64,000 bases of DNA. Source: Eledone cirrhosa (Eukaryota). Shown here piece by piece: positions 1-56,975 of the stretch. The translations under genes were made by a program, and so were the position numbers. The stretch's first letter is position 1; each line of letters opens with the position of its first letter. The notes under the pieces are model-generated. The model made no database searches. It was given only the letters and a program-made list of their open reading frames with translations, and had not been told where the DNA came from. The stretch spans positions 80,724,001 to 80,788,000 of the forward strand of contig OZ024747.1 in assembly GCA_964016885.1 (NCBI GenBank), in the 5' to 3' direction.

Positions 1-1374
1 TGCATTATTGTAGTATTCAGCATGTTCGCTAAAAATATCAGAGTTAGACGATAGGCGAGAGATTCTAAGAGAAATACTCCGGGGAACTGATTTGATCATG
101 GAGAGTGGGTGGTTAGAGTTAAAGTTAATATACGTAAGGTTCTCATTTACCCTGTGGAAGGGTCGTATCTGTCCGGTATTTAAATTAAGAGTTACGTCCA
201 GAAAGTTTACTACCTTAAGATTGTATTCGTATGTTATTTTTAGGCCCAGTTCACTAAAAGATTTTCTAATATTTTTCCGTAGCCTTTCAAGATTTTGGTT
301 ATTCAAGTTATTAACTAATAAGAGCCCGTCATCTCTATATATCCCCCCCTGTAGATTACTAAATCTACTATGTAATATGTGGGCTATGTAAATTCCCACG
401 AGATCCGTGACCTCCGCCGAGTCGTTGGAACCCATGGTAATATCGAAATTTGTGGGTCTGTCCTTACGTTCCCAGTAGCAGTTATCGAACTTAATAATGG
501 TTTTTCTAGCCTCGAGAATAATATTAATTTCTTCCTCCGTTAGGTCGGAATTGGCCTTAGCAAACGATAGGGCCTTACGTAAAGTGCTTGGTGAGATGGA
601 AGAGTAGTATTCGTCTATGTCAAATTGTATAAACTTAGATTTATTCTTATTCTTAACATTATTAAACCAGCGAATTGCTTCGCTAGTGTTGCCCCATAAT
701 TTAATTTCAATTTTCTTTTTCACTTGAGTTATTACTCTGTCAAGTATATGTTTACTAATTTTCCCTATGTCTGATTTAGAAGGGCATATAAGTCTAATCT
801 TAGGGTTAGAGTCAAAATTTACCTTATGGTCCTTCAGGTTGAAGGTGGGGGTAGCGGGTATAATCGGCTCGGTTCTATCGTCTATCTTGAGATTCTTTAC
901 CACTTTGTATGCCTCGTTGTTAATATTTGCTAGCGTAGTTTCATTTGTTTTTCTATATTTTTTGTGTAGTTCGTTGCGTATGAAGTTATTATACGTATCG
1001 ATATCCATGGTATACACGTTAGAAGTCTTGTCAGCTTTCACAACAATTCCATTGGTATTTTGCAATCTTCGGAGTAGTGCTTTCATGTTGTTCTGCAGCT
1101 CATTATTTCTATGTCTGTTGAACTTAATGTTCATGGTAGTTTTCAATAAGTCCTGTTCGAAAGCTTCGAGGTGAGGGTTTGTAGGTGGGTTTTTACATGA
1201 TTTAAAACCATATGATTCAGACGAGTGATTGGCGCGTCCTTTATCGAAGTGGAAAGCTTTCCATCGTACACGCCGAATGAAGTCGTTACTGCGTTGAATC
1301 ATACTGAGAATATATTCCCTTTTGTTAGGTATAGGTATGTTTTTAAGTGACATACCTATATGATGCCTTTCCAT
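1..1374 (-). CDS. PLE reverse transcriptase ORF, N-terminal part, open to the window edge
   Basis: Hand translation: MERHHIGMSLKNIPIP...FIRRVRWKAFHF...KADKTSNVY...LKDHK...RLICPSKSDIGKISKHILD...FDIDEYYSSI...MGSNDSAEV...GIYRDDGL...FLDVTL. No stop was found. It is absent from the ORF track because it has no stop inside the window. Confidence 0.92.
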   Translation of the reverse strand, partial: MERHHIGMSLKNIPIPNKREYILSMIQRSNDFIRRVRWKAFHFDKGRANHSSESYGFKSCKNPPTNPHLEAFEQDLLKTTMNIKFNRHRNNELQNNMKALLRRLQNTNGIVVKADKTSNVYTMDIDTYNNFIRNELHKKYRKTNETTLANINNEAYKVVKNLKIDDRTEPIIPATPTFNLKDHKVNFDSNPKIRLICPSKSDIGKISKHILDRVITQVKKKIEIKLWGNTSEAIRWFNNVKNKNKSKFIQFDIDEYYSSISPSTLRKALSFAKANSDLTEEEINIILEARKTIIKFDNCYWERKDRPTNFDITMGSNDSAEVTDLVGIYIAHILHSRFSNLQGGIYRDDGLLLVNNLNNQNLERLRKNIRKSFSELGLKITYEYNLKVVNFLDVTLNLNTGQIRPFHRVNENLTYINFNSNHPLSMIKSVPRSISLRISRLSSNSDIFSEHAEYYNNA

Positions 1375-1619
1375 ATTAATGCCGTGTGTCGATGTGGTTG
1401 CTCAACTATGTAGGAGACGATTATTAGGTATAGGATTATCCAAGATGCAGTGATGGTTAATTACTACACTGGATATGGTTGACGTACGGTAAGAGGTTAC
1501 TCTACGAGTTATGGAAGAATTGTTCAAGAAACTTAGTTCTTGATCCTTCAGTATTCCGGAGTGTATATAAAGAATGAATAATAACAGGTAGACATCATAA
1601 AAAGGTAGTTTATTCCGTG

Positions 1620-1731
1620 TGCTTACAAGTGTTTCCACGGTGGTACTGCAGCCTAGTTCCGCTACGTGCAAATTCACAAGTATTTGCAGAACTCGAATAT
1701 CCAATGCTGTGACCACTGTTTCCTCAGAGCA
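1620..1731 (-). ncRNA. Type I hammerhead ribozyme, second pLTR copy
   Basis: Reverse complement of 3966-4077. Confidence 0.85.
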
Positions 1732-1794
1732 GAATGGTAAATATACAATGTAAAAACCCTTAGTAAACATATACTTGACAGAGTAATAACTCAA

Positions 1795-3472
1795 GTGAAA
1801 AAGAAAATTGAAATTAAATTATGGGGCAACACTAGCGAAGCAATTCGCTGGTTTAATAATGTTAAGAATAAGAATAAATCTAAGTTTATACAATTTGACA
1901 TAGACGAATACTACTCTTCCATCTCACCAAGCACTTTACGTAAGGCCCTATCGTTTGCTAAGGCCAATTCCGACCTAACGGAGGAAGAAATTAATATTAT
2001 TCTCGAGGCTAGAAAAACCATTATTAAGTTCGATAACTGCTACTGGGAACGTAAGGACAGACCCACAAATTTCGATATTACCATGGGTTCCAACGACTCG
2101 GCGGAGGTCACGGATCTCGTGGGAATTTACATAGCCCACATATTACATAGTAGATTTAGTAATCTACAGGGGGGGGATATATAGAGATGACGGGCTCTTA
2201 TTAGTTAATAACTTGAATAACCAAAATCTTGAAAGGCTACGGAAAAATATTAGAAAATCTTTTAGTGAACTGGGCCTAAAAATAACATACGAATACAATC
2301 TTAAGGTAGTAAACTTTCTGGACGTAACTCTTAATTTAAATACCGGACAGATACGACCCTTCCACAAGGTAAATGAGAACCTTACGTATATTAACTTTAA
2401 CTCTAACCACCCACTCTCCATGATCAAATCAGTTCCCCGGAGTATTTCTCTTAGAATCTCTCGCCTATCGTCTAACTCTGATATTTTTAGCGAACATGCT
2501 GAATACTACAATAATGCATTAAGGAATGCTGACCACCGGGATACAATAGAATACATCGATAGTAATTTCCACAACACACATAGCTCTACACGTAATCAAG
2601 GTATACGTAACCGGGGGACTAAAACACAAGCACACACACACTATACTACCAGACATACTAATAATAGAAGTTCACCACCAAATAAATCACGTTGTAGAAA
2701 GTATATCTGGTATAATCCTATTTTTAATGCCTCGAATAGTACAAAACTATCTCTTTCATTCTTTAAATTAATCAATAAACACTTCCCTAGTTCCCATAAG
2801 TACAGCAAAATTCTGAACTCCAAAACTATTAGACTATCATACTCCACGGCACCAAACCTTGAAGCATACATAAAAAAACTTAACTTAAGGCAATTAAACA
2901 ACTCTACAAAACAAAACATTTTAGTAACAGGTGGGCAGAACGCAATATCTGCCTCCCAACCACTAAATGGGAGACGGATATTGCACAACCCACCTGTACC
3001 GCTATCACAACCTATCCATGGTATACCCGCTACCCACAACAAAGCATGTAACTGCCATCTACCTGAAAGATGTCCATTGCAGAATGAATGCCTAAAGTCC
3101 AACATTGTTTACCAATGCACGGTTGAATCGGACGACCAGAAATGGTATTATATCGGATCTACCACCACATCGTTTAAATCTCGCTGGTACCGTCATCGAT
3201 TCTCAATCAAACATCAGAATCACCGTTTTGTGACCACGCTCGCCAACAAGACCTGGCAACTCCGTGAACACAACCAACAGTTCACCTTAAAATGGGATAT
3301 ACTTTCCAGCGCAAATGCATATCGGAGTGGTTTGAAGTACTGCAGGTTATGTAACCTTGAGCTATTTTACATACTAAAATCCAAAAACAAACTACTTAAC
3401 GATAGAATTGAACGATCATTATACTGCAACCACAAACTAAAAGCTAAATTCTCTCACTATAAAATAACTTAA
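1795..3472 (+). pseudogene. 5'-truncated PLE RT + GIY-YIG endonuclease, split by a +1 frameshift just before YRDD
   Basis: ORFs 1795-2184 and 2213-3472. G8 at 2169-2176 contrasts with the in-frame G7 in the minus copy (343-349). The C-terminus has CNCHLPERCPLQNECL, IVY...YYIGST...FKSRW..H and CRLCNLE motifs. Confidence 0.92.
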
Positions 3473-3965
3473 CATTCGAACCCGTAACTACAACACCACT
3501 TTCTAGCTAACAACCTTCTCTTCTCCCCCACACTACAAGACAATACACTGCTTATCACTATACATGGTAACTCAGTACAATTCCTAGATTACTACTACAA
3601 AACCAAAAGTTCACTCACCACATATACTTTATCTGTCCCCTCTCTACCTATATATCTCTCTCTACATCCATTACACTCTCTCTCTCTCACCTTTGACCTA
3701 CCTCCCTCTCAACATCTATGAACTTGACCTCTGGGGCAATAAATAATTCCGACCTCAACTATCTACGCATCTCTCCAAAAGTAACTAATAAAACCCCTAC
3801 CATAACATTTTGATTAAGATATCTACAAGCCACTCTCTCCTACTTCTCCAACCCCTGCATATCTTTCCTTCTCTCTCCATCTTCCCTACTTTTCTCTCTT
3901 CCTGTTCCACTCTATCTTCCCCAACAACCCCACTTAAGGGTTTTTACATTGTATATTTACCATTC

Positions 3966-4077
3966 TGCTCTGAGGAAACAGTGGTCACAGCATTGGATAT
4001 TCGAGTTCTGCAAATACTTGTGAATTTGCACGTAGCGGAACTAGGCTGCAGTACCACCGTGGAAACACTTGTAAGCA
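3966..4077 (+). ncRNA. Type I hammerhead ribozyme in the PLE pLTR, with an 85-nt helix II domain
   Basis: TGCT-CTGAGGA-(A ACAGTGGT...ACCACCGT G)-GAAAC-ACTT-GTA-AGCA; predicted cleavage after 4073. Confidence 0.85.
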
Positions 4078-4124
4078 CACGGAATAAACTACCTTTTTAT
4101 GATGTCTACCTGTTATTATTCATT

Positions 4125-4162
<38 letters not shown>

Positions 4163-4254: not shown

Positions 4255-4317
<63 letters not shown>

Positions 4318-4380
4318 AATAAAATAAGTAAGTCAAATATGTAAAATTTGGCTTCGTTCATTATAAATTATAAATTTACA

Positions 4381-4429
4381 GCTATATATATTTCGGTGAC
4401 AGCCATTATTGGCTGTGACCTCTTCAGGC
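4381..4429 (-). ncRNA. Minimal type I hammerhead in a small fold-back element (4317-4680)
   Basis: GC-CTGAAGA-GGTCACAGCC-AATAAT-GGCTGTCACC-GAAA-TATATA-TA-GC. Helix I is short. A 39 bp inverted repeat (4317-4355 / 4543-4581) brackets it. Confidence 0.75.
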
Positions 4430-4816
4430 AATCCGAATTGGCGTGGAAAATACAGGTACACACGTTGTTGAAGTGTGTTTCACTCTGTCAATACATCGAC
4501 ATGTCCAGCTCCTGGGTGTGTTGTTAGTCCTCCGAGGAACTGGAAGCCAAATTTTACATATTTGACTTACTTATTTTATTTTACATTACTCCGGAGTAAA
4601 CAAACCAACCTGCCTACTTCGTTGAGTGCGCCAATCTGCACACTGAGGTGTCGGTAAACAACCAGCATATACTCAAATATTATATATATATATATATATA
4701 TAGGTTGAAATAAAATGAAAACGAAATTTCATTTCTCACTCTTAGTATGGCACTTACTTAAATGTAAGTATGTATGTATACGTACATACATATATGTATA
4801 CAGACGTACAGTAGCA

Positions 4817-4866
<50 letters not shown>

Positions 4867-5016
4867 CACGTACACATACATATATGCACGCATCAGTTTA
4901 GCGGACGCTTATTATAACGCCGCTTTGTTCGTTTGTAAACAAACTGAACAGCCTGAATTTATGCCATACGGTGTTAAGGCAACCACGTCACCTTTTTGTT
5001 CAACACTGACACAGGA

Positions 5017-5059
5017 ACGATGTACTAGTTTCAAGCTTGTTAGCTATCATCAGCACCGT
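5017..5059 (-). ncRNA. Type I hammerhead ribozyme
   Basis: ACGGTG-CTGATGA-TAGCT-AACA-AGCTT-GAAA-CTAG-TA-CATCGT; palindromic helix III (ACTAGT). Confidence 0.9.
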
Positions 5060-5097
5060 ATACCCATCTGCCAGATAGTTGAACGTTCGAAAGTATA

Positions 5098-5143
5098 TAC
5101 TTTCCTTATGAAAATTAACGGCTGAGCAGCCTAATTTGCATAT
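5098..5143 (-). promoter_or_regulatory. Octamer (ATGCAAAT) plus PSE-like element upstream of the hammerhead
   Basis: TATGCAAATTAG...TAATTTTCATAAGGAAAGTA; same order and near-identical spacing at 27948-27991. Confidence 0.55.
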
Positions 5144-5295
5144 TGAGTGAGTTGAATCGGTCAGGCATACCGAAAACGATAAGTTGAAATAAAATGAAAA
5201 CGAAATTTCATTTCTCACTCTTAGTATGGCACTTACTTAAATGTAAGTATGTATGTATACGTACATACATATATGTATACAGACGTACAGTAGCA

Positions 5296-5338
<43 letters not shown>

Positions 5339-6034
5339 GTTTAGCGGACGCTTATTATAACGCCGCTTTGTTCGTTTTATTGTTATACACACACTCGAAT
5401 GTGTATCTGGAAGAATAGTAAATTATATATAAACAAAATACCTTCCATCATAACGTGAGATGGTCATACAGTTTAACACTTACTTGAATACATGCAACCT
5501 GTTAGGCCTTTTAGCGATTTTGGCCATATCAACGAAAAATATCCTCGATCGTCACAGTTAATCGGTCTCTCAATTTTAGCAGACAGTTTCTGTTTACATA
5601 GCTGTATAATAAGGCTTGACTATAAAAATATACCAGCTCTCGAGTCAACGAATTAACCTCTTCTACATGACTTTTATACCTGCTAGAAATAGAAATTGAT
5701 CCTTCCATCATGAAAATAGAGGGACATGGTGAATTACGAAGTCGTAGATATGCAATATTCGGGGAAAAGAAAGACGTTATAGCTAAAGTACTTTTTCTCA
5801 TGGCCTTGCTCAGCTGATAAACAAAACCCAAATTCAACTATATTAACTCATATGTAAACGACGAAGACTTGATGTTGTTTCGCACTACTCTTACGTCTAT
5901 CTCTTCTCTCCTTATCAAAACTTTCATAAAGAAGGACTTCTGTTCGAAACGTTGAAACATCCTCTACATCCTCCAAGCATGAACTTAATATAACTGTGGA
6001 AAATTGCCTTCTGTGTATTCTTTGTTTCATTTAT

Positions 6035-7125: not shown

Positions 7126-7166
7126 CGAAACATAAGTCAATTGCAAGAACTCATAATCCTTTATTT

Positions 7167-7222
7167 ACTGCTATATATATTTCGATGATAGCCATTGAAT
7201 GGCTATGACCTCATTAGGCAGT
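7167..7222 (-). ncRNA. Hammerhead with G5A core change (probably inactive), same family as 4381-4429
   Basis: ACTGC-CTAATGA-GGTCATAGCC-ATTCAAT-GGCTATCATC-GAAA-TATATA-TA-GCAGT. Confidence 0.75.
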
Positions 7223-11287: not shown

Positions 11288-11385
11288 AGGGAGTGTAACT
11301 TGGAGTTACTGTAGGTTCACCCGGGTGAGCACTCGATGTTTAAGTTTACACTTCTGTGTAGAGGTGTGTGTATATATATATATAT

Positions 11386-14300
11386 GAATATAGACATAGA
11401 ATATTCGAAAATATTCTGTATGTTTATAATAAACATTTTGAAGACCTAATCGCTATAGAATAGAATACGTCACGTATTACAATTAGATTCTCGACAAAAG
11501 CAAGGGAAGTAATCTACGCGTTTCATTCTTGTTAGAAATCATCAGGACTACATATCCAGTGCTTTTATCGAGAATGACACAGCTAGAGACTTATAGAATA
11601 CTTAGCTGTGTACAGGAACTGGTTTGAAAGAGCGGTTGCCGGTCCGGCAGAAATTAGAAATTGGAATAAATGCTCTGAAATAGCGATATATATGTGAATA
11701 TAGACATAGAATATTCGAAAATATTCTGTATGTTTATAATAAACATTTTGAAGACCTAATCGCTATAGAATAGAATACGTCACGTATTACAATTAGATTC
11801 TCGACAAAAGCAAGGGAAGTAATCTACGCGTTTCATTCTTGTTAGAAATCATCAGGACTACATATCCAGTGCTTTTATCGAGAATGACACAGCTAGAGAC
11901 TTATAGAATACTTAGCTGTGTACAGGAACTGGTTTGAAAGAGCGGTTGCCGGTCCGGCAGAAATTAGAAATTGGAATAAATGCTCTGAAATAGCGATATA
12001 TATGTGAATATAGACATAGAATATTCGAAAATATTCTGTATGTTTATAATAAACATTTTGAAGACCTAATCGCTATAGAATAGAATACGTCACGTATTAC
12101 AATTAGATTCTCGACAAAAGCAAGGGAAGTAATCTACGCGTTTCATTCTTGTTAGAAATCATCAGGACTACATATCCAGTGCTTTTATCGAGAATGACAC
12201 AGCTAGAGACTTATAGAATACTTAGCTGTGTACAGGAACTGGTTTGAAAGAGCGGTTGCCGGTCCGGCAGAAATTAGAAATTGGAATAAATGCTCTGAAA
12301 TAGCGATATATATGTGAATATAGACATAGAATATTCGAAAATATTCTGTATGTTTATAATAAACATTTTGAAGACCTAATCGCTATAGAATAGAATACGT
12401 CACGTATTACAATTAGATTCTCGACAAAAGCAAGGGAAGTAATCTACGCGTTTCATTCTTGTTAGAAATCATCAGGACTACATATCCAGTGCTTTTATCG
12501 AGAATGACACAGCTAGAGACTTATAGAATACTTAGCTGTGTACAGGAACTGGTTTGAAAGAGCGGTTGCCGGTCCGGCAGAAATTAGAAATTGGAATAAA
12601 TGCTCTGAAATAGCGATATATATGTGAATATAGACATAGAATATTCGAAAATATTCTGTATGTTTATAATAAACATTTTGAAGACCTAATCGCTATAGAA
12701 TAGAATACGTCACGTATTACAATTAGATTCTCGACAAAAGCAAGGGAAGTAATCTACGCGTTTCATTCTTGTTAGAAATCATCAGGACTACATATCCAGT
12801 GCTTTTATCGAGAATGACACAGCTAGAGACTTATAGAATACTTAGCTGTGTACAGGAACTGGTTTGAAAGAGCGGTTGCCGGTCCGGCAGAAATTAGAAA
12901 TTGGAATAAATGCTCTGAAATAGCGATATATATGTGAATATAGACATAGAATATTCGAAAATATTCTGTATGTTTATAATAAACATTTTGAAGACCTAAT
13001 CGCTATAGAATAGAATACGTCACGTATTACAATTAGATTCTCGACAAAAGCAAGGGAAGTAATCTACGCGTTTCATTCTTGTTAGAAATCATCAGGACTA
13101 CATATCCAGTGCTTTTATCGAGAATGACACAGCTAGAGACTTATAGAATACTTAGCTGTGTACAGGAACTGGTTTGAAAGAGCGGTTGCCGGTCCGGCAG
13201 AAATTAGAAATTGGAATAAATGCTCTGAAATAGCGATATATATGTGAATATAGACATAGAATATTCGAAAATATTCTGTATGTTTATAATAAACATTTTG
13301 AAGACCTAATCGCTATAGAATAGAATACGTCACGTATTACAATTAGATTCTCGACAAAAGCAAGGGAAGTAATCTACGCGTTTCATTCTTGTTAGAAATC
13401 ATCAGGACTACATATCCAGTGCTTTTATCGAGAATGACACAGCTAGAGACTTATAGAATACTTAGCTGTGTACAGGAACTGGTTTGAAAGAGCGGTTGCC
13501 GGTCCGGCAGAAATTAGAAATTGGAATAAATGCTCTGAAATAGCGATATATATGTGAATATAGACATAGAATATTCGAAAATATTCTGTATGTTTATAAT
13601 AAACATTTTGAAGACCTAATCGCTATAGAATAGAATACGTCACGTATTACAATTAGATTCTCGACAAAAGCAAGGGAAGTAATCTACGCGTTTCATTCTT
13701 GTTAGAAATCATCAGGACTACATATCCAGTGCTTTTATCGAGAATGACACAGCTAGAGACTTATAGAATACTTAGCTGTGTACAGGAACTGGTTTGAAAG
13801 AGCGGTTGCCGGTCCGGCAGAAATTAGAAATTGGAATAAATGCTCTGAAATAGCGATATATATGTGAATATAGACATAGAATATTCGAAAATATTCTGTA
13901 TGTTTATAATAAACATTTTGAAGACCTAATCGCTATAGAATAGAATACGTCGCGTATTACAATTAGATTCTCGACAAAAGCAAGGGAAGTAATCTACGCG
14001 TTTCATTCTTGTTAGAAATCATCAGGACTACATATCCAGTGCTTTTATCGAGAATGACACAGCTAGAGACTTATAGAATACTTAGCTGTGTACAGGAACT
14101 GGTTTGAAAGAGCGGTTGCCGGTCCGGCAGAAATTAGAAATTGGAATAAATGCTCTGAAATAGCGATATATATGTGAATATAGACATAGAATATTCGAAA
14201 ATATTCTGTATGTTTATAATAAACATTTTGAAGACCTAATCGCTATAGAATAGAATACGTCACGTATTACAATTAGATTCTCGACAAAAGCAAGGGAAGT

Positions 14301-14480
14301 AATCTACGCGTTTCATTCTTGTTAGAAATCATCAGGACTACATATCCAGTGCTTTTATCGAGAATGACACAGCTAGAGACTTATAGAATACTTAGCTGTG
14401 TACAGGAACTGGTTTGAAAGAGCGGTTGCCGGTCCGGCAGAAATTAGAAATTGGAATAAATGCTCTGAAATAGCGATATA
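11386..14480 (-). mobile_element. Tandem array of ten 310 bp monomers, each with a type I hammerhead (retrozyme-like)
   Basis: Units start at 11386+310n (n=0-9). Only one substitution was seen (A>G at 13952). Both ends are flanked by (TA)n. Confidence 0.95.
11509..11551 (-). ncRNA. Type I hammerhead of the 310 bp monomer (repeated every 310 bp up to 14299-14341)
   Basis: GTAGTC-CTGATGA-TTTCT-AACA-AGAAT-GAAA-CGCG-TA-GATTAC. Helix I is extended by ATTCTCGATAAAAGCA/TGCTTTTGTCGAGAAT. Predicted cut between 11515 and 11514. Confidence 0.93.
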
Positions 14481-15138
14481 TATATATATATATATATATA
14501 TAGATATATATAGATAGATAGATAGATATATAACAAAGAAGGTGTGGTAAGATACCAGATGGACCATAACCCACCAGAGTACACGATACTTAGGATAGTA
14601 GAGTGGGTAATAGGAAAAGAGTCACGACCCCCACGGCTGAGCCCTGGCCGTTTCGACAGCTAGATCCGAAATATGAATATATATATATATAAATAAAACT
14701 TACATTCAAACATATTCTCACTATATAAGCCCACTCGAATGAATATATAAAACGTATAATTCATTTTCACTACAAACTTATATACATACACAATGACACG
14801 AAAATATTCTTTCTTGGCTTCAACAATACACATAGTCGTATATAGGTTTATAAACTGACACTTATATAAACACCTGGTCATGTGAAGATGTCAATAAGCA
14901 CACACGCCTATGAACAAAACCAAAACAAATACACAGAACATGCAATAAGCACATATACATCATCTGAAAAACCTGCATATATATCTTAGTACCAACGTAG
15001 AAACACGTAATGCATATTCAAATATTTCATCGCAAATACATACAAACATGCACAAATATCGGATTACGTTCAAACGCTCATAACCTCACGCACATTTTCC
15101 AAAATTAGTAAAATACACGCGCAGCTATAATATACGAT

Positions 15139-27486: not shown

Positions 27487-27557
<71 letters not shown>

Positions 27558-27852
27558 ATATAAACAAATAACGAAACGAAATTAAATTTCGTTTCGTTTG
27601 TAACTCACTTTTGTATGACTGACGCTTAAACAATTAAGTTAAAAATGTACATCCACATGTGTATACTGAAATACTAGTATGCATATGAATACACACACGT
27701 ATAAATATGTAGATGTACCGAGTTTTTCACTGGTCACTTTACTGTGAGTGTCCAGCTATTCTGTATGTAAACACACAGACAAACCGGTTTTTAGAGTCAT
27801 ACTAGTTTTTGAGGAAACACCTTTCCTCTATTCTCCAGAAAGCCAGACAAGG

Positions 27853-27897
27853 AATATTGAACTAGTTTCGTTGTTGTTACAACTCATCAGCAATATT
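27853..27897 (-). ncRNA. Type I hammerhead ribozyme
   Basis: AATATTG-CTGATGA-GTTGT-AACA-ACAAC-GAAA-CTAG-TT-CAATATT. Confidence 0.92.
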
Positions 27898-27947
27898 TAC
27901 CTATCTTCCGGCCTTTCTAGAGAATCGTAAAAGCACATATCGTTATA

Positions 27948-27991
27948 TGCTTTTTCTATGAAAATTAGTAGTGGGCAGACTAATTTGCATA
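27948..27991 (-). promoter_or_regulatory. Octamer plus PSE-like element upstream of the hammerhead
   Basis: TATGCAAATTAG TCTGCCCACTA CTAATTTTCATAGAAAAAGCA. Confidence 0.55.
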
Positions 27992-28273
27992 GAGCGTGAG
28001 TACGTACCGGTTCAGCGGAGACGATAAAAACAAATAACGAAACGAAATTAAATTTCGTTGTCTGGCTTTCTGGAGAATAGAGGAAAGGTGTTTCCTCAAA
28101 AACCAGTATGACTCTAAAAACCGGTTTGTCTGTGTGTTTACATACAGAATAGCTGGACACTCACAGTAAAGTGACCAGTGAAAAACTCGGTACATCTACA
28201 TATGTATACGTGTGTGTATTCATATGCATACTAGTATTTCAGTATACATATGTGGATGTACATTTTTAACTTA

Positions 28274-28358
<85 letters not shown>

Positions 28359-29144: not shown

Positions 29145-29179
<35 letters not shown>

Positions 29180-29217
29180 ATTAAATAAATGGAAAACTAT
29201 ATTTATAAAACCATATC

Positions 29218-29283
29218 TATTTCATTATATATATTTCGGGGATATCATATTAACAATATGCTATGCCTTCATCAGACAAAATA
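29218..29283 (-). ncRNA. Type I hammerhead, left arm
   Basis: Reverse complement of 32460-32525. Confidence 0.85.
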
Positions 29284-29643
29284 CAATATAAACAGTTTTA
29301 TAGATAAATATATTCGACATACCGTAATAAACATCAACTTCATTTGAAGAGGTTTACGCTAGCAGTGAAAATACAGAGAGAAAGAAAGAGAGAAAGAAAA
29401 GAGGGAAAAAAGAAAGAAAGAAAGACAAAACGAAGAGAAGGAAGAAAAAGAAGAAAAAGAAAAAGAAGAAATGCATGGAACAAAATAGAGAGATGGAAAA
29501 ATAGATAAAGCGAAGAGCTTCATGTAAAGAGACAGAAAGAGATATATATATATAGAGAGAGAGGAAATAGAGATAGATACATATATATATATAGAAAATT
29601 AGGTAGTGGGAGGTCATTTTGAGTAAGTGTATCAATGATACAT

Positions 29644-29682
<39 letters not shown>

Positions 29683-32040
29683 GCTCAAGTATTAATGTAA
29701 GGAAGATATATAGAGAGATATAGAGAGATATAGAGAGAGAAAAAAAAAAAAAAATTTAAAATAGCCAGACATATTCGAGGCGTAGAAAACCCTATGTTTT
29801 AATGTATTAGTATTTATAAAACTTACACTATATTGTAAATATCAGTATTCCTGAATGAAACAAGTATTCACAATGTGTGAAAATTCATTATCTTATGTTT
29901 AGTTTTAAAAAATTCATATGTTTATGTGACAGCTACAAACATCAATGTGAATCCAACTGATTCACTCCGCAAACTCTAAGTTACCGGAAAACATTCTCAA
30001 TGTGGTATAAAAATTTGAGCATATTATTATTCTTGCGATTACTCTACAAGATTATCTATCAAGCAGAAATAGAGAGCAGATTTCAATATACTAATCGAAA
30101 ATATATATTATATTATAAACAAAGATAACAATAATAATAATAAGTAAAAATATATAAAAATATAGAATAGAAAACTAAAAAAAAAAATATTACGAAAGAA
30201 TATTACATAATAAAAATATTGCATATTAAAAATACTACGTATTAAAAAATATTACGTATTAAAAATTTACATATAAAAATATTAAAAATAAAATAAAAAA
30301 TAAAAATATTATAGAATACTACAATACTAAAAGAATAAAAATAAAAATAAAAATAAAAATAAAAATGAAAATAAAATAAAAATAAACCACAAAGAACAAC
30401 CCTTCAAAGTTAATTGACAATATATTGCCAAGTTCATTGCAAGACAAAGCCAAAAATTATCTATCAAATCACATCTAGCAAAGAATATCGCAAAAAAGAT
30501 TATGATGTCCAATAATGTCTACATATGTTCCTATATTTAATATAGAAGTTTATCTAGTGTAAGGTTAATTCAAAAAATTTGGAGCATCGGCTTTTAGGGT
30601 AGCTTAATTTTTCATGAGGAATGTTTAGATAAAAATAAAAATAAATTAAATAAATTAAACAATAAAAAGAGTAAAAAGAGGGAATCAAAGATTTAGGAAT
30701 CTTCAACGGCACTATCAGGGGTACTCTGGCAACTTAAGCTAGATAACGTTAGATATTCGACGGCTTGGAATATAGTCTCAAGAGGGATTCCTTTTAATTC
30801 ATCCTCTGAGACATGTGACCTCTGCGCAGAGGAGATATTCTTTATACTAAAATCTAAAAATTCCCTTAACCTACGGACAAATTTATTCAGTTGTTGCAAA
30901 CATAGATTAAACTCAACGTTTAAATATAAATTTAAATTTAAAATGTAGTATATTTAGTTTGATTTATATTTATATGAGAACTAGCCGATAAATCTTTTGA
31001 TTCCTAAATCTTTGATTCCCTCTTTTTACTCTTTTTATTGTTTAATTTATTTTATTTATTTTTATTTTTATTTTTTATCTAAACATTCCTCATGAAAAAT
31101 TAAGCTACCCTAAAAGCCGATGCTCCAAATTTTTTGAATTAACCTTACACTAGATAAACTTCTATATTAAATATAGGAACATATGTAGACATTATTGGAC
31201 ATCATAATCTTTTTTGCGATATTCTTTGCTAGATGTGATTTGATAGATAATTTTTGGCTTTGTCTTGTAATGAACTTGGCAATATATTGTCAATTAATTT
31301 TGAAGGGTTGTTCTTTGTGGTTTATTTTTATTTTATTTTCATTTTTATTTTTATTTTTATTTTTATTTTTATTTTTATTCTTTTAGTATTGTAGTATTCT
31401 ATAATATTTTTATTTTTTATTTTATTTTTAATATTTTTATATGTAAATTTTTAATACGTAATATTTTTTAATACGTAGTATTTTTAATATGCAATATTTT
31501 TATTATGTAATATTCTTTCGTAATATTTTTTTTTTTTTAGTTTTCTATTCTATATTTTTATATATTTTTACTTATTATTATTATTATTGTTATCTTTGTT
31601 TATAATATAATATATATTTTCGATTAGTATATTGAAATCTGCTCTCTATTTCTGCTTGATAGATAATCTTGTAGAGTAATCGCAAGAATAATAATATGCT
31701 CAAATTTTTATACCACATTGAGAATGTTTTCCGGTAACCTAGAGTTTGCGGAGTGAATCAGTTGGATTCACATTGATGTTTGTAGCTGTCACATAAACAT
31801 ATGAATTTTTTAAAACTAAACATAAGATAATGAATTTTTACACATTGTGAATACTTGTTTCATTCAGGAATACTGATATTTACAATATAGTGTAAGTTTT
31901 ATAAATACTAATACATTAAAACATAGGGTTTTCTACGCCTCGAATATGTCTGGCTATTTTAAATTTTTTTTTTTTTTTTTTTTCTCTCTCTATATCTCTC
32001 TATATCTCTCTATATATCTCCCTTACATTAATACTTGAGC

Positions 32041-32099
<59 letters not shown>

Positions 32100-32459
32100 A
32101 TGTATCATTGATACACTTACTCAAAATGACCTCCCACTACCTAATTTTCTATATATATATATGTATCTATCTCTATTTCCTCTCTCTCTATATAAATATA
32201 TCTCTTTCTGTCTCTTTACATGAAGCTCTTCGCTTTATCTATTTTTCCATCTCTCTATTTTGTTCCATGCATTTCTTCTTTTTCTTTTTCTTCTTTTTCT
32301 TCCTTCTCTTCGTTTTGTCTTTCTTTCTTTCTTTTTTCCCTCTTTTCTTTCTCTCTTTCTTTCTCTCTGTATTTTCACTGCTAGCGTAAACCTCTTCAAA
32401 TGAAGTTGATGTTTATTACGGTATGTCGAATATATTTATCTATAAAACTGTTTATATTG

Positions 32460-32525
32460 TATTTTGTCTGATGAAGGCATAGCATATTGTTAATATGATA
32501 TCCCCGAAATATATATAATGAAATA
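32460..32525 (+). ncRNA. Type I hammerhead, right arm
   Basis: TATTTTGT-CTGATGA-AGGCATAGCATATTGTTAATATGATATCCCC-GAAA-TATATA-TA-ATGAAATA. Confidence 0.85.
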
Positions 32526-32660
32526 GATATGGTTTTATAAATATAGTTTTCCATTTATTTAATATTTAATATTGTAAATATACTCCAAATATTTGTCGAG
32601 TGCTTTTATATCAGTTATAAATATTTACTAGTTGTAACCCAACAATTTTAAATATAACTT

Positions 32661-32709
<49 letters not shown>

Positions 32710-32714
<5 letters not shown>

Positions 32715-33063
32715 CGTAAAACATACCAAAAATTGTGCATCTAATAACTGCATGTATAACCGCATGTACAGATACAAAGAATATGCACATGCACACATAT
32801 AACTCAAAACCTCCACATCCACACACACAATAACATCCATACGTCCACACATAGATATGCATGCAGACATGGATATATATTTACATAGTTGATGATGTGC
32901 CAATTTCAATGAGGGAGTTTTGTATCTATGTTAGAAACCGATTTTCTCTCTCTTGGTAAACATTTATAAAATTATAAAACTAGAAGAACATACATACATA
33001 CATTCATATACTCTTTTACCAGTCCCAGCCATCCGGCTGAGGCCATGCTGGGGCACTGCCCTT

Positions 33064-33150
<87 letters not shown>

Positions 33151-33847
33151 ACTAGAAATTGATTAACATATATAAACATGAATAATCACAGGAGATAATT
33201 TTTACATACCAAGTTAGGTAACACATAAATAGATACCTTTTAATATATGATTAACCTTCCCTGTATATATTCTATTAAAGAAATATATTTCACCAATTAA
33301 TCAGATGGTAAGTCACGGAAAGTGGATATTATTGGATTATCAACAAGGAAGAATAATAATGTCCAGCTATCCATGCTTACACCGCGAGTTTAAATCTTCA
33401 ACTGGCCTGTACCACGTGTTGCTCTTACACATGACAGCAGTCTCGTCGCAGTGGCGTGATAGGTATTCGACAACTAGAAACAGCAGTCAAATTCCTTTCA
33501 ACAGAATTAGCTCTACAATTAAGGAGCCGTATTTATATATCTATATCCAAAATTAAGATAAATTAAATGAATTTAATCCAAATCGAAATTGTGGGTGTCA
33601 TGCCATAACGGCGTGCGCCATATCGCCTGGAAATAAGCTCAAAGATAGGTCCGAGCATTTTATAATAGCTAGAAATTGATTAACATATATAAACATGAAT
33701 AATCACAGGAGATAATTTTTACAAGCGTGTAACCACGCATAGCAAGTTAGGTAACAAATAAATAGATACCTTTTAATATATGATTAACCTTATATATATA
33801 TGTATGTATATATATAAATCTACATTGTTGAGGCTTCCAAAACGACC

Positions 33848-33895
<48 letters not shown>

Positions 33896-34248
33896 CAAGG
33901 GCAGTGCCCCAGCATGGCCTCAGCCGGATGGCTGGAACAGGTAAAAGAGTATATGAATGTATGTATGTATGTTCTTCTGGTTTTATAATTTTATAAATGT
34001 TTACCAAGAGAGAGAGAATCGGTTTCTAACATAGATACAAAACTCCCTCATTGAAATTGGCACATCATCAACTATGTAAATATATATCCATGTCTGCATG
34101 CATATCTATGTGTGGAGGTATGGATGGTATTGTGTTTGTGGATGTGTATGTCTTGAGTTATATGTGTGCATGTGCATCTCCTTTGTATCTGTACATGTGT
34201 ACATGCAGTTATTAGATGCACATGTTTTGGTATGTTTTATGTATGTAT
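32710..34248. repeat. Inverted repeat, ~355 bp arms (32710-33066 / 33894-34248)
   Basis: Colinear reverse complements with scattered mismatches; a short related piece is near 57655-57693. Confidence 0.88.
33152..33791. mobile_element. 518 bp monomer x1.2 inserted in (TA)n within the inverted-repeat spacer
   Basis: Direct repeat starting at 33152 and 33670; internal long hairpins. Confidence 0.65.
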
Positions 34249-35713: not shown

Positions 35714-37771
35714 TCAGGCCAAGTCGAAGACTCCACCCTCAGAGTCTGGTGTGGTTGCCAGGTTGGATTCTCTGTTTAATTTTGACATGTGTAGGAGCGA
35801 GTTTGAGTCAGTTTGTGCTCGTTGTGTATATCCTGGGAGATGGGGTTCATCTCTAATGGTGCTTAAGTATCTATCCAGCTGCAATTTGAATGATTCCACA
35901 CTGCATCCTGATAGATTTCTGACATGTACCGGAATGGAGTTGAATAGTTGTGTCCCTCTAACCAACAGACTTGACTCTCGCAGGGTTTTTGCTGCCTGGC
36001 CAGCCCTTTTGTTGATTGGTGGTAGCTGGCAGCGTCTTCCGTGGCGCAGTGAGTGGTAGGTTTTGATACCGAAGTTTGGCACCTTTTGCTCTATCATTTT
36101 CCAAATGTATATAATTCGGTATCGCTCAAATCTTCTTTCTATTGAGTACATCTTCAAGGTTCTGAGTCTTTGCCAATAGTCCAGGTCCCTCGTTTCTGAG
36201 AAGTATGAAGTAAAATTTCTTTGGAGCGATTCCATCTTAGATAGTTGGCCCTTTGTTGTTGGTGACCACAACTGAGAACAGTAGTCAATCCTCGGAAGTA
36301 TCATACTGTTCCAGAGGGTTTTCATTGTTGAGGTATCTCTTGATTTGAAGGTGCGCAAGATCCACCCGCTGTACTTTCTTGCAGTAAGACAGACTGAGTC
36401 AAGGTGTTCTCTGAATTTTAGGCTGGTTCCCATGTGGATGCCTAAATCTTTCACACACTGTTTTTCCATTATTTGTTGTCCTGATGGGTTTCTGTAGTTT
36501 GTTGTATTTTTCAGATCTTGATCTGTTCCGTAGCGAATTAGTTCAAACTTCTTATCATTGAACAACATGTTGTTTGTTTCCTGCCATTTGTATATGGTGG
36601 TTAGGTCCTTTTGTAAGGCCTCTGTATCCACCTCGTCTTTGATTTGTCTCATGACCCTGGTGTCATCAGCAAAGGATGAGACGTTGCTGGTTGTATCTTC
36701 ATCTATGTCAGAGATGAGGATGAGAAACAGGATCGGGACGAGTACTGTACCCTGAGGAACACTGCTGGTCACAGGTGATGGTGTTGAATGGGTTCCATTC
36801 ACAGTGACTGTTTGAGTTCTATTTGTAAGGAACTCATGTATCCATGTACCAACTTTTCCTCCTACTCCTAGCTTTCGAAGTTTGTGTCCCAGGATGCCAT
36901 GATCTACCTTGTCAAATGCCTTGGCAAAGTCGAGGTAAATAACATCTGTGTTGTATCCATTCTCTAGATTTTCTAGGATTTGGTCATGGTGTGCCAGTAG
37001 TTGGGAAAGACATGATCTACCTAACCTGAATCCATGCTGATTGCAATTCATCAGATTGTTGGATTCCAGGAACTCAACTAGTTTTCCACGAACTATTCTT
37101 TCGAAGACCTTGATAATGTGTGATGTCAGTGAGATTGGTCGGTAGTTCTTTGGTTTTGATTTGCTGTCCCCTTTATGTATTGGAGTTATGTGTGCTTCTT
37201 TATATGTATTTGGTATTTTGCCATTCTCCATAGATTCCTTCCATATCATGTAAAGGGGTTTCAACAATTGTACCTTGCAGTTTTTAAGTATCATGGCATT
37301 GAAACCATCAGGCCCCGCAGCCGAGTGCATGGAGAGCTTGTCTATGGCTCTTTCTATGTCTTCTGGGTTGAAATCAATGTCGGATAGGGTAGGTTTAGTA
37401 TGGTCGATATCCTTGAAGAATTCTCCTGGGTCATGGATCTTCATGGTTTTAGATGGCTCACTGAAGACACTTTCATACTGTTGACCCAACATTTCTGCCA
37501 TTTCAATAGGGTTATTCACTACATCCCCATTTTGTCTCTGGAGAGGTCCTATTGTTGACTTGGTATTCGAGTATTTCTTTGCAAAACTGTAGAAACATTT
37601 TGGATTTTTCTTGATGTTTTCTATGGCTCTCTTTTCTGCATTGTTACGTTCTTCATCATAGTATTGTTTTAGATTGTCTTCTAATCTGTATATTTGGTCA
37701 AGGACTTTCTGTAGTTCATGTTTTGATGTCAGCTTAGATGTTTTGTTTCTTAGTCTTGACCTTTTGCGCAT
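35714..37771 (-). CDS. LINE ORF2 reverse transcriptase region
   Basis: AAGPDG, NYRPISLTS, QHGFRLGRSC, YLDFAKAFDKVDH, VPQGTVL, FADD, KDLGI motifs. Confidence 0.95.
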   Translation of the reverse strand: MRKRSRLRNKTSKLTSKHELQKVLDQIYRLEDNLKQYYDEERNNAEKRAIENIKKNPKCFYSFAKKYSNTKSTIGPLQRQNGDVVNNPIEMAEMLGQQYESVFSEPSKTMKIHDPGEFFKDIDHTKPTLSDIDFNPEDIERAIDKLSMHSAAGPDGFNAMILKNCKVQLLKPLYMIWKESMENGKIPNTYKEAHITPIHKGDSKSKPKNYRPISLTSHIIKVFERIVRGKLVEFLESNNLMNCNQHGFRLGRSCLSQLLAHHDQILENLENGYNTDVIYLDFAKAFDKVDHGILGHKLRKLGVGGKVGTWIHEFLTNRTQTVTVNGTHSTPSPVTSSVPQGTVLVPILFLILISDIDEDTTSNVSSFADDTRVMRQIKDEVDTEALQKDLTTIYKWQETNNMLFNDKKFELIRYGTDQDLKNTTNYRNPSGQQIMEKQCVKDLGIHMGTSLKFREHLDSVCLTARKYSGWILRTFKSRDTSTMKTLWNSMILPRIDYCSQLWSPTTKGQLSKMESLQRNFTSYFSETRDLDYWQRLRTLKMYSIERRFERYRIIYIWKMIEQKVPNFGIKTYHSLRHGRRCQLPPINKRAGQAAKTLRESSLLVRGTQLFNSIPVHVRNLSGCSVESFKLQLDRYLSTIRDEPHLPGYTQRAQTDSNSLLHMSKLNRESNLATTPDSEGGVFDLA

Positions 37772-38925
37772 CAGGATCTTTCGCTCCCGTGGTACAGGTT
37801 TTTTGTGGATTTGGTTTTCTTAAGAGGAATATTTTTTGCACATATTTCTTCGATCTTGTTTAAGAATTTCTTGTGTTTATCTGGCCCAGTAAGGTAGAGA
37901 TCCCAGTCAATGATTTGTAATTGGTTGTTAATAGTTTCCCAATTTGCCTGGTGATAATCATACCTGCATAGCTTTGGCATGTCCTTTTGTTTAAGAGTTG
38001 TGGCATTGGGCTCATTACCAATGTGTAAATGCATTTCAATAATATTGTGGTCTGAAAGGATTGTTGGGGTTGAGTGAAGGTCAAATAGCGTGTCCTCGTT
38101 GTTGGTGAAAACCAAGTCGATCGTATTATTATTTCTAGTTGCTTCTGTCATCATTTGTTTGAGGTATAATTTCTCTGTGACTTCCAACAGTTTGGCTGCC
38201 TGTATTTGTTCAGCTTTTGTCCCCAGTTTTAGTATGTGTCCATGTGGCCAGATGATGTTAGGGAAGTTGAAGTCACCAAGGAGGATAATGTTTGGCATTG
38301 GACTCGCCATGTTTCCCAGAATTTGTTGGAGCTTTGTCAGTGGTTCAGTGAAGGATAATGTTGGGCTGTTTGGCGGTCTGTACATTATTGTTACAACTGT
38401 ATTAAGTTGGATGATTTTTATGCACAGCAGGTTGCAGTAGGCATTTGATTCATTGACAAGTTCTATGCATGCATAGGTATCATGGATATACATGATAACG
38501 CCCCCATGGGATCTGACTTGTCTATCACATCTGAAGATGTTGAATCCATTGATTGAGATTTCGCTGTTGCGGATGTTTTCGTTGAGATGACTTTCAGTAA
38601 TTCCAATTATTTTGGAGTTGTTTTCTGTTGCTAATTCTTCCAAGAAAGGGACTTTACACTGTTTTGTTTTCGGATAAAGACCCTGGATATTTGCTGTTAT
38701 TATGCTTGTTGTACCGGATACATCTGCCCTATTGTTGGCAAGACTGTTGTAGTTGCTGGGACTGTGCTGACTGGATATTTGGTCTGCTGGGCTGTCTGTA
38801 TTTGTTGTATGTGCCCTGTAAGTCCAGGTGTCAGCCTTTGTATCAATGTTGCCTGGTTTTGCTGAGTCATCTGTATGGAGTACAGCTGTTGTTGTAGTTG
38901 GTAGATTATGCCTAAAAAACTGCTT
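37771..38925 (-). CDS. LINE ORF2 APE endonuclease region, separated from RT by a 1-nt frameshift near 37799-37804
   Basis: ANIQGL, ITESHL, GGV, YRPP, GDFNFP, IDLVF, SDHN motifs. The frame is open from 38925. One extra base would join it to KPVPRERKILMRKRSR. Confidence 0.9.
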   Translation of the reverse strand, partial: KQFFRHNLPTTTTAVLHTDDSAKPGNIDTKADTWTYRAHTTNTDSPADQISSQHSPSNYNSLANNRADVSGTTSIITANIQGLYPKTKQCKVPFLEELATENNSKIIGITESHLNENIRNSEISINGFNIFRCDRQVRSHGGVIMYIHDTYACIELVNESNAYCNLLCIKIIQLNTVVTIMYRPPNSPTLSFTEPLTKLQQILGNMASPMPNIILLGDFNFPNIIWPHGHILKLGTKAEQIQAAKLLEVTEKLYLKQMMTEATRNNNTIDLVFTNNEDTLFDLHSTPTILSDHNIIEMHLHIGNEPNATTLKQKDMPKLCRYDYHQANWETINNQLQIIDWDLYLTGPDKHKKFLNKIEEICAKNIPLKKTKSTKNLYHGSERS

Positions 38926-55421: not shown

Positions 55422-56360
55422 CCTTCACATTAAAGTATCCTTCGTAGAACCCACTTTTTGCCTAGTTTGTTCGACACGGTATACATAACATCAACATCAC
55501 TAACTTCTACAATGCAATGACAGAGTGCAAGTCCTTTGGGTGTTTCTGCAACCCTCTTTAGATTAAAATGCTGCGAGTTTTGATATCAGAAAAGCAGTTG
55601 ATTTCGCTCCATGTGGATGGTCACTGTTTTCCATATATGACAAAATGGAGCTATCTCACTCAAAGATTAAAACCTTCTCTAAAACAACGAAGATCTAATC
55701 TATTAATTGTACATCCAACAACTACCATTACTAAGGGTTTGTCAATGATAGATTACCGGAATCGTTCCACCTTATGCGGTCAACCAATGTCCTCTGATCT
55801 AATTTGTAAAAGTAAAGTAATTTCCCTTGAGATTAACACATTCAAAATACAAGAATATTTTGTCAATGCCATTCTATAAAAAACATTAGAAACTTTCTGA
55901 TTATATTTTCTGTGTAAAGGTGTCAGTAGAGAGTGCTATTTTTCAGAATCCTTCGATTCAGGTGCACACATCTATCCTAAAATTTCATTGATGTTTCAAC
56001 ATATTCGTTGTAATATTAAAAGCAAAACATCTTCTCTAGTGATACAACTCCCTGTCTATAATTTGGAAATCTTCCAAATGTAGACATTTTTATTAAAGCA
56101 TAAATATATTCTCCATTAGTTAAGTAAATAATACCTCCCTCGGTTTCGAGGGTAAGTGTTCCAATAGTTCGATCATTATATAATGTGAACTTGACAATAT
56201 CATGTCATATTTCTATCCAAACTACAGGACATCTCAATTGTTTCAAAAACACTTCCAAACGAATCAATCTATAAACAGTCACTCGGTCAGCTTGAAACAT
56301 GAATCAATTTTCTTTCAAACTCCATACTACAGTTTTAGAAAAGGGAGGGACTTTTATGTA

Positions 56361-56975
56361 ATGTAGTTCAACATAGATTAAATATGAAAACAGACTGGAT
56401 GGTCGCACCTAGAAAAGGGCCTCTTATCTAATGTAATTCAACATAGATTAAATATGAAAATAGACTGGATGGTCGCACCTCGAAAAGGGCCTCTTATCTA
56501 ATGTAATTCAACATAGATTAAATATGAAAATAGACTGGATGGTCGCACCTCGAAAAGGGCCTCTTATCTAATGTAATTCAACATAGATTAAATATGAAAA
56601 TAGACTGGATGGTCGCACCTCGAAAAGGGCCTCTTATCTAATGTAATTCAACATAGATTAAATATGAAAATAGACTGGATGGTCGCACCTCGAACAGGGC
56701 CTCTTATCTAATGTAATTCAACATAGATTAAATATGAAAATAGACTGGATGGTCGCAACTCGAAAAGGGCCTCTTATCTAATGTAATTCAACATAGATTA
56801 AATATGAAAACAGACTGGATGGTCGCACCTAGAAAAGGGCCTCTTATCTAATGTAGTTCAACATAGATTAAATATGAAAATAGACTGGATGGTCGCACCT
56901 AGAAAAGGGCCTCTTATCTAATGTAGTTCAACATAGATTAAATATGAAAATAGACTGGATGGTCGAACCTAGAAA
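56361..56975. repeat. 70 bp minisatellite, ~8.8 copies
   Basis: Unit ATGTAATTCAACATAGATTAAATATGAAAATAGACTGGATGGTCGCACCTCGAAAAGGGCCTCTTATCTA, starting at 56361+70n. Confidence 0.95.

Follow-up and report, generated by a model that had tools for sequence, protein, structure and literature searches.

Metazoan non-LTR retrozymes are described as tandem arrays of non-coding monomers of low GC content, each with a type I hammerhead ribozyme, and Penelope-like elements (PLEs) are proposed to mobilise them (PMC7229834; Li et al. 2026, 10.64898/2026.07.22.740005). Their monomers are given as 170-400 nt long in the available text of PMC7229834 and as 51-972 nt in that of 10.64898/2026.07.22.740005, where Li et al. 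tie the retrozymes to PLEs via pLTR homology. The EN+ PLEs are found with head-to-head arms, a tail at one end and two copying starts downstream of a hammerhead (PMC8557442, PMC3846280, PMC11167929). An inverted 5'-truncated copy is typical of PLEs (PMC8557442, PMC3846280) and the Hydra clade is known for a (TA)n target (PMC8557442). In an active PLE, the RT was observed to start at two adjacent internal sites which bound the tail, and the element cleaves AT-rich DNA and extends its two strands, with a dimer being predicted (PMC11167929). Promoter-bearing hammerhead repeats are already known from newt and schistosome, where the tandem arrangement of satellite 2 and Sm-alpha lets one unit transcribe the next (PMC2220036, PMC6765202). 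In the available parts of the respective reports, the route to inverted and tailed PLE insertions, the role of the hammerhead and the enzyme of the animal retrozymes are called open (PMC8557442, PMC11167929, PMC7229834, 10.64898/2026.07.22.740005).

The insertion analysed here is located in a window of 64,000 nt, the whole stretch of DNA under study, from the 3.0-Gb genome of Eledone cirrhosa. It resembles the metazoan retrozymes in its tandem non-coding monomers with a type I hammerhead in each, its low GC content and its candidate PLE mobilisation, and has a monomer of 466 nt against the lengths given above. It resembles the EN+ PLEs in its head-to-head arms, its one-end tail and its two copying starts downstream of the hammerhead, and the Hydra clade in its (TA)n target. 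It differs from the EN+ PLEs in having no ORF, in its tail of about 70 nt as against 30-40 nt in the PLEs described, and in its arms, which are arrays of a short monomer where diagnostic variants trace both arms to one source. The pLTR homology of Li et al. is almost absent here. The available text of PMC7229834 and 10.64898/2026.07.22.740005 describes neither insertions with two arms nor a pair of fixed ends with a tail, and neither a U6-type promoter inside the element nor an end motif in common with a driver. A full-text search, covering few subscription papers, found no two-armed tailed retrozyme insertions, no U6-type promoter in such insertions and no haplotype tracing of PLE arms, and the supplements of PMC7229834, PMC8557442 and 10.64898/2026.07.22.740005 may show similar elements.

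The insertion is flanked by the two parts of a (TA)n microsatellite (27494-27561 and 28279-28351, no strand). Monomer positions are numbered from the predicted cleavage site (+1). The long arm (27562-28059, minus strand, 498 nt) was found to run from monomer position 267 to 466 and then from 1 to 298, and its 3' end at 27562 is outer end B of the family. The inverted short arm (28058-28278, plus strand) covers +10 to +230 and terminates 3' at 28278, the outer end A. The tail, which separates outer end A (+230) from outer end B (+298), is present in the long arm only (27562-27629, minus strand) and contains a 13-bp hairpin (27570-27598, minus strand), which is a family hot spot for inner arm ends and was also flagged in a bacterial promoter scan. 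Both the 466-bp monomer and the inverted segment of the original prediction were borne out, as 27562-27593 and 28028-28059 are identical at 32/32 nt and 28058-28278 is the reverse complement of 27630-27850. The arms meet head-to-head at a 2-nt TT microhomology (28058-28059), which places the break at +10 to +12, i.e. 10-12 nt past the predicted cut. Both arms carry the same haplotype at 3/3 diagnostic sites. This copy amounts to 1.07 units with a single ribozyme and a single promoter, and such a minimal copy could probably not release a full monomer. Since its long arm passes the cut site by 200 nt, its template must have been at least partly uncut or religated.

A type I hammerhead ribozyme is predicted from sequence and folding at 27853-27897 on the minus strand, where its self-cleavage is putative. 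It is canonical, as originally claimed, with the CUGAUGA and GAAA core, a NUH triplet and three helices. Helix I is formed by 7 bp between AAUAUUG (27897-27891) and CAAUAUU (27859-27853). The CUGAUGA core (27890-27884) is followed by the 5-bp helix II with its AACA loop (GUUGU-AACA-ACAAC) and then by GAAA-CUAG-UU, where helix III has 1 bp and a palindromic CUAG. The cut is predicted between 27860 and 27859, after GUU (H17 is U in the window copy). Across the family, GUC was observed in 27/44 loci and GUU in 17/44, and a GUU cleavage triplet is associated with weaker activity. Folding of the 76-nt ribozyme region gave z = -3.4 relative to 200 shuffles and extends the helix I stem to about +20 (about 27840/27914). 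A helix III of 1 bp with a palindromic loop is known for metazoan type I motifs which work as dimers (PMC4209133), and 1/9 Xenopus dimers was reported to be cleaved (Li et al. 2026, 10.64898/2026.07.22.740005).

The window also contains a sister retrozyme family, the 5017 element (4704-5377, minus strand), which is homologous over tail, promoter and ribozyme. The claimed covariation with its ribozyme was confirmed, since helices I (AACGGUG/CAUCGUU) and II (UAGCU/AGCUU, with one U-U mismatch) differ in sequence and yet pair, while AACA and CUAG are kept. Inside the 466-bp family, a both-sided helix II change was found with A-U in 34/44 loci and U-A in 10/44, these both-sided changes within and between families resting on few independent events. 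The Rfam models at gathering score, hammerhead models included, gave 0 matches over the whole 64-kb window. Other copies of the sister family have two arms as well, which end near +251 and +301-310.

A search at the DNA level returned 118 matches, from 40/435 candidates scored, most of the full-length ones being 96-98% identical. The 466-bp family is, as far as these sequences indicate, young and abundant. Its arrays range from 0.1 to >15 units and very often have two arms pointing apart. Outer end A was located at +228 (327 exact matches with a TA flank) or +230 (125), and outer end B at +298/300 (1,150 forward-strand and 1,293 reverse-strand matches). The reverse-strand count includes visible double counts and the total is therefore about 2,000 insertions, of which about 160 were sampled. 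Reversed-pattern controls for the end searches gave 0 matches. The two ends are about 70 nt apart and enclose the 13-bp hairpin. The insertion target is a (TA)n microsatellite, where a target-site duplication is not discernible, and this target is circular for the pattern-found sets as TA flanks belonged to their search patterns. Copies found by similarity alone have the same outer ends as the pattern-found copies. Among 91 head-to-head junctions, 60 were A+B, 2 A+A and 2 B+B (from a diverged subfamily with poor mapping), and in 27 an end was unclassified or unreached. As side observations, L038 and L039 belong to a diverged subfamily with a repeat of about 468 bp and the loop AAUA instead of AACA, and in four runs compared to the family array (kind unrecorded; contigs only, with no joints and no start or end positions) one contig of run X4 spans about one monomer.

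The insertions have the PLE-type signature of fixed 3' ends, variable 5' truncation, an inverted 5'-truncated copy and a tail on one side. Coding capacity is absent, the longest ATG ORF in a real array having 50 aa and the GC content being 36% (under 45%), and no RT plus GIY-YIG ORF was found in the retrozyme element. On the testable features the family is, as judged from its sequence, a member of the metazoan non-LTR retrozymes. It is scarcely credible that these are DNA-level elements (a satellite, or a MITE with terminal inverted repeats) inverted by recombination. Inverted flanking sequence and long arrays would suit such an element, and a 4-unit pattern in L110 may reflect a later duplication, but the ends differ by a fixed tail, the inner ends are variably truncated, many copies are one-armed and the ribozyme has both-sided changes.

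The original prediction held that the 5' end of a cleaved RNA limited the synthesis of the second, opposite-strand cDNA, as in PLE inverted insertions, and proposed a plot of the breakpoints against the cut. We made this plot for loci chosen via outer end A and therefore blind to the inner junction. The first set consisted of 90 of 100 listed places (out of 125 with end +230) with the window copy left out, and gave 90 mapped arms and 3 censored ones, as some fetched stretches contain two ends. The second, independent set, taken after the +1 to +25 interval had been fixed, consisted of the first 40 new places with end +228 and gave 34 mapped and 6 censored arms. Arms which ran off the fetched stretch (3 + 6) were treated as censored, and L068 and L074 duplicate L062 and L059, each being counted once.

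The short-end arms were found to cross at least one cut site in 97/133 cases, with 153 crossings altogether, and because of this cleavage is not a general limit. A modest excess of stops was observed just past the cut, however. At +1 to +25, 8/90 arms of the first set stop against 4.7 expected (p=0.10, not significant alone), 8/34 of the second set against 1.8 (p=0.0006), and 16/124 of both sets against 6.5 (p=0.001). None of the 124 mapped short-end arms stops exactly at +1. The 50 nt upstream of the cut contain 7 stops against 12 expected (p=0.09). Both arms end near the cut in 4/107 pairs against 1.2 expected (p=0.04), and L079 is a perfect fold at +2. The long-end arms have no such excess near the cut (4/86 against 4.2 expected) and cluster at the tail hairpin, with 17 stops against 4.9 expected. 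Stops of L115 and L090 near the cut were discarded as small internal deletions in read-through arms, which reduced the first-set count from 10 to 8/90. Exact hot spots at +11 and +21/22 in the first set were not clearly repeated in the second, where the stops are at 4, 8, 10, 10, 12, 15, 18 and 19.

The cut site or its stem thus limits about one encounter in ten. The excess at +1 to +25 could come from run-off at a cleaved end plus trimming, or from stalling at the extended stem (+1 to +20). As a general rule in which the inverted cDNA runs off the cleaved 5' end and the cut sets the breakpoints, the proposal is highly improbable. The stops past the cut, the slight depletion upstream of it and the double stops speak for it, but most arms read through, none ends at +1, the long-end arms are without excess and stops cluster at other stems too; in addition, ribozyme-dead PLE RNA was found to insert equally well in vitro (PMC11167929). 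The suggested link to PLE inverted insertions stands, and a cleaved 5' end would limit the second cDNA in a minority of arms at most. For the window copy alone, that a cleaved end set the break is possible, although we lean somewhat against it. What is fixed in this family are its two outer ends, on which the earlier prediction was silent. These two fixed outer ends, together with a single arm source, a U6-type element and a candidate driver, are stronger findings than the cleavage effect.

The two arms of one insertion were observed to agree at eight diagnostic sites in 62/70 pairs against 20 expected (maximum of 33 in 2000 random draws), and in 18/18 of the second set. The common haplotype in 80/88 insertions of both sets indicates that the two arms derive from a single source. 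Some of this agreement could also come from gene conversion between them. Among the 8 discordant pairs, six differ at one site, and L105 and L125 at three. Arm lengths are correlated (rho 0.44, n=60 A+B junctions), and where unit-specific variants could be traced, in 9 pairs with noisy data, the two arms tend to span identical units. The A+B junctions have a 1-7 nt overlap in 43/60 cases. Only 4/60 are symmetric, and the offsets are distributed over the full monomer. In 26/60 of these junctions the A arm exceeds the B arm in length, and the partner arm is absent for 19/88 A arms.

A single self-primed cDNA which folds back into a hairpin, the arms becoming unequal by a later asymmetric central deletion, would account for the common haplotypes, the same-unit coverage, the correlated lengths and the symmetric junctions. 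Self-priming has been suggested for PLE copies (PMC3846280). We consider this origin distinctly unlikely here, as the remaining 56/60 junctions are asymmetric with offsets all round the monomer and the A arm is often the longer one. Furthermore, the solo A arms, the A+A pairs and two mixed-haplotype pairs, L125 (A+A) and L105, require that site A can be primed alone. In the PLE studied in vitro, both such sites are RT starts (PMC11167929). In our reading, which depends on the sequence of the copies, priming took place twice, on a single RNA or on sibling transcripts from the same locus. L1 twin priming has the inversion and the joining microhomology in common with these insertions: there, both target strands prime, the second primer is placed variably within the RNA and there is no overlap of the two parts. 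In the present family, in contrast, both starts are fixed and the arm sequences overlap. An L1-like arrangement of adjacent, non-overlapping arms found no support, the best register being 0 or +1 in 8/9 pairs with one tie.

Between a circle and a linear multimer as template, the data pull both ways. On the one hand, 96/101 multi-unit arms are uniform at the diagnostic sites; on the other, some insertions share unit-specific variants between their arms. Periodic unit-specific variants were noticed in L110 (4 units), L043 (2 units in one arm) and L051, and these could come from oligomeric circles or from later block duplication.

Schistosome Sm-alpha hammerhead repeats carry a Pol III promoter of the tRNA type. 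In the window copy, an upstream element TATGCAAATTAG is found at 27980-27991 on the minus strand, with a TATA-like box (27943-27947, minus strand) 44 nt on from its start. The element is identical at 12/12 nt to that of the host U6 gene L154 and also matches MRP and U6atac. Its consensus, TATG(C/G)(A/T)AAT(T/G)AG, was located at -77 to -79 in 4/4 U6 loci scored (12 fetched), in MRP and in the top U6atac match. The other 5/6 U6atac matches fetched are without it and look like pseudogenes. It was not found in the host Pol II snRNA genes scored (0/6 U2 and 0/3 U1 loci). Host U1/U2 genes (L153-L180) have a TATA-like box at -30 and a different upstream motif, TCAGT, near -57, and the U6 array copies L160 and L164 have a repeat inserted in the promoter. 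Within the window, the element occurs only in the two retrozymes. The element plus CTGATGA gave 18,380 genome matches (control 0), and among the 100 listed most belong to the 466-bp and sister families. L219 and L220 (minus strand) are additional, older hammerhead-like elements that carry this upstream motif as well.

The spacing from element to TATA is 44 in the 466-bp family and 43 in the sister family, whereas the host Pol III genes have the TATA 47-49 nt on from the element; this shortening by 4-5 bp holds against all 6 host Pol III promoters scored. The sense strand of the unit has two T5 runs (+215 and +296), and host MRP ends at a T5 run. Both features are awkward for Pol III read-through. 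End B as a general Pol III terminator was discarded, the sister family and the Hydra-type PLE having no T5 there. It may therefore be asked whether Pol II uses the U6-like element, or whether the element is a mere relic, with the RNA arising by read-through; mobilisation would be unchanged in either case. The shorter spacing would let transcripts pass the T runs, of which each unit has two, and arms exceed 15 units. Moreover, in newt satellite 2 Pol II works from an snRNA-type promoter (PMC2220036, PMC6765202). We regard this as somewhat unlikely, since the element and TATA resemble those of the host U6, MRP and U6atac genes and not those of U1/U2, and since the element is invariant between two otherwise well-diverged families. 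In addition, two older hammerhead-like elements, L218 (2276-2420) and L219 (2354-2500), have a spacing of 48, which is the exact U6 spacing. With a U6-type promoter, the predicted start would be just upstream of helix I, about 25 nt 5' of the hammerhead core. The promoter ends the preceding monomer; each unit would thus be transcribed from the promoter in front of it, and multi-unit RNAs would carry promoters along.

A candidate driver is located in the same window. This two-armed Hydra-type PLE (1-4133, left arm on the minus strand and running out of the window) has its left arm in a 784-aa open frame, and among 150 relatives listed, 20 fall within frames 780-786 aa long, of which one is flagged for a stop. 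The element looks intact, and its arms are 99.7-99.9% identical (window 1-4133 and L221 6250-8601). By eye, its translations contain the RWK, DKT, CxCX5C, CxxC and CxH motifs, which are listed for the Hydra clade (PMC8557442), and it has the (TA)n target. Pfam gave no match for two partial PLE frames. The PLE sits in (TA)n, and its two ends, 146 nt apart, are downstream of a hammerhead-like motif whose helix II is very long; this motif was read by eye and missed by the folding program. On the forward strand, 254 PLE copies end at its site B.

The sequence after site B was found to be TAATCGTCTCC in the PLE and TTATCGTCTCC in the retrozyme, the end-motif match being AUCGUCUCC. In the monomer, outer end B is followed by the motif ATCGTCTCC (28017-28025, minus strand). 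The shared 9-mer occurs in only two places of the window, 28017-28025 and 1413-1421, both after outer ends. The end sequences elsewhere are TTATCGT in the sister family and ATCG in a 310-bp array. A comparison with the PLE pLTR (630 nt of the pLTR-ORF junction) gave only the 9-nt motif and two unrelated 8-mers, and the tails are unlike in length (about 70 nt in the retrozyme against 146 nt in the PLE). As the 9-nt match was found after looking and is the sole shared sequence, we take it as a lead. Judged by their sequences, the Hydra-type PLE is the likely driver of the retrozyme, which is itself neither an autonomous PLE nor a recognisable pLTR derivative of it.

The window is rich in hammerhead-like and PLE-like relics. 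The 310-bp array (11376-14483) consists of ten units between TA runs, and in each of them a minus-strand hammerhead has an AACA loop and a CGCG palindrome; the array is without the U6-type element and ends just before ATCG. An inverted repeat at 29176-32670 has arms of about 1.6 kb which are 93-100% complementary, TA flanks, no frame >97 aa, a hammerhead-like motif near each outer end and about 100 nt extra at its right end, and probably represents one more two-armed family of PLE type without coding capacity. Between TA runs, hammerhead-like motifs or PLE-like 3' fragments were also observed at 4316-4680, 6195, 7163-7220, 44125 and 52588. An inverted pair at 32711-34245 (32854-33065 with 33895-34106, 98%) is flanked by TA runs. 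Other repeats include a minus-strand LINE with endonuclease and RT frames (35714-38925; RVT_1, E 5e-30), many copies of a dispersed SINE-like repeat of about 190 bp (16850-53555) and tandem arrays of 70 and 39 bp (56346-56976 and 62405-64000).

Taken as a whole, we think it probable that a non-autonomous retrozyme is moved here by a PLE RT-endonuclease, most likely that of the Hydra-type family in the window, through priming at two sites. Within a tandem array, transcription would start about 25 nt before the hammerhead core, driven by the U6-type element and TATA which end one monomer. The ribozyme would cut part of the sites only, and circles may form too. The PLE protein, probably as a dimer, would then prime cDNA from both DNA ends of a break, one at site A and the other at site B, with a single RNA molecule or sibling transcripts of one locus as template for both. 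The genomic copies bear the signature expected of such a process, with insertion into (TA)n, copying that begins internally at two constant places, A (+228/230) and B (+298/300), variable stops which are more frequent where the RNA forms stems and on reaching the cut site or shortly before it, and head-to-head joining of the two cDNAs through 1-7 nt of microhomology.

More tentatively, but still as a fair prospect, the retrozymes may have captured a host U6-type promoter and kept only a short AUCGU-type end signal of Hydra-clade PLEs, a dimer loading a single RNA source, priming both (TA)n ends simultaneously from the sites which bound the tail and joining the cDNAs head-to-head, with cleavage limiting about one encounter in ten. 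Thousands of young and traceable insertions, a short template with mapped starts and an intact candidate enzyme make these questions directly testable. If true, this proposal would account for the combination of inversion and tail that PLEs have in common, and would name a specific retrozyme-driver pair from a cis signal. A U6-type promoter which travels inside the repeat may indicate how an upstream promoter can survive retrotransposition, and the structure of the outer ends bears on how Penelope-type retrotransposons copy RNA into DNA.
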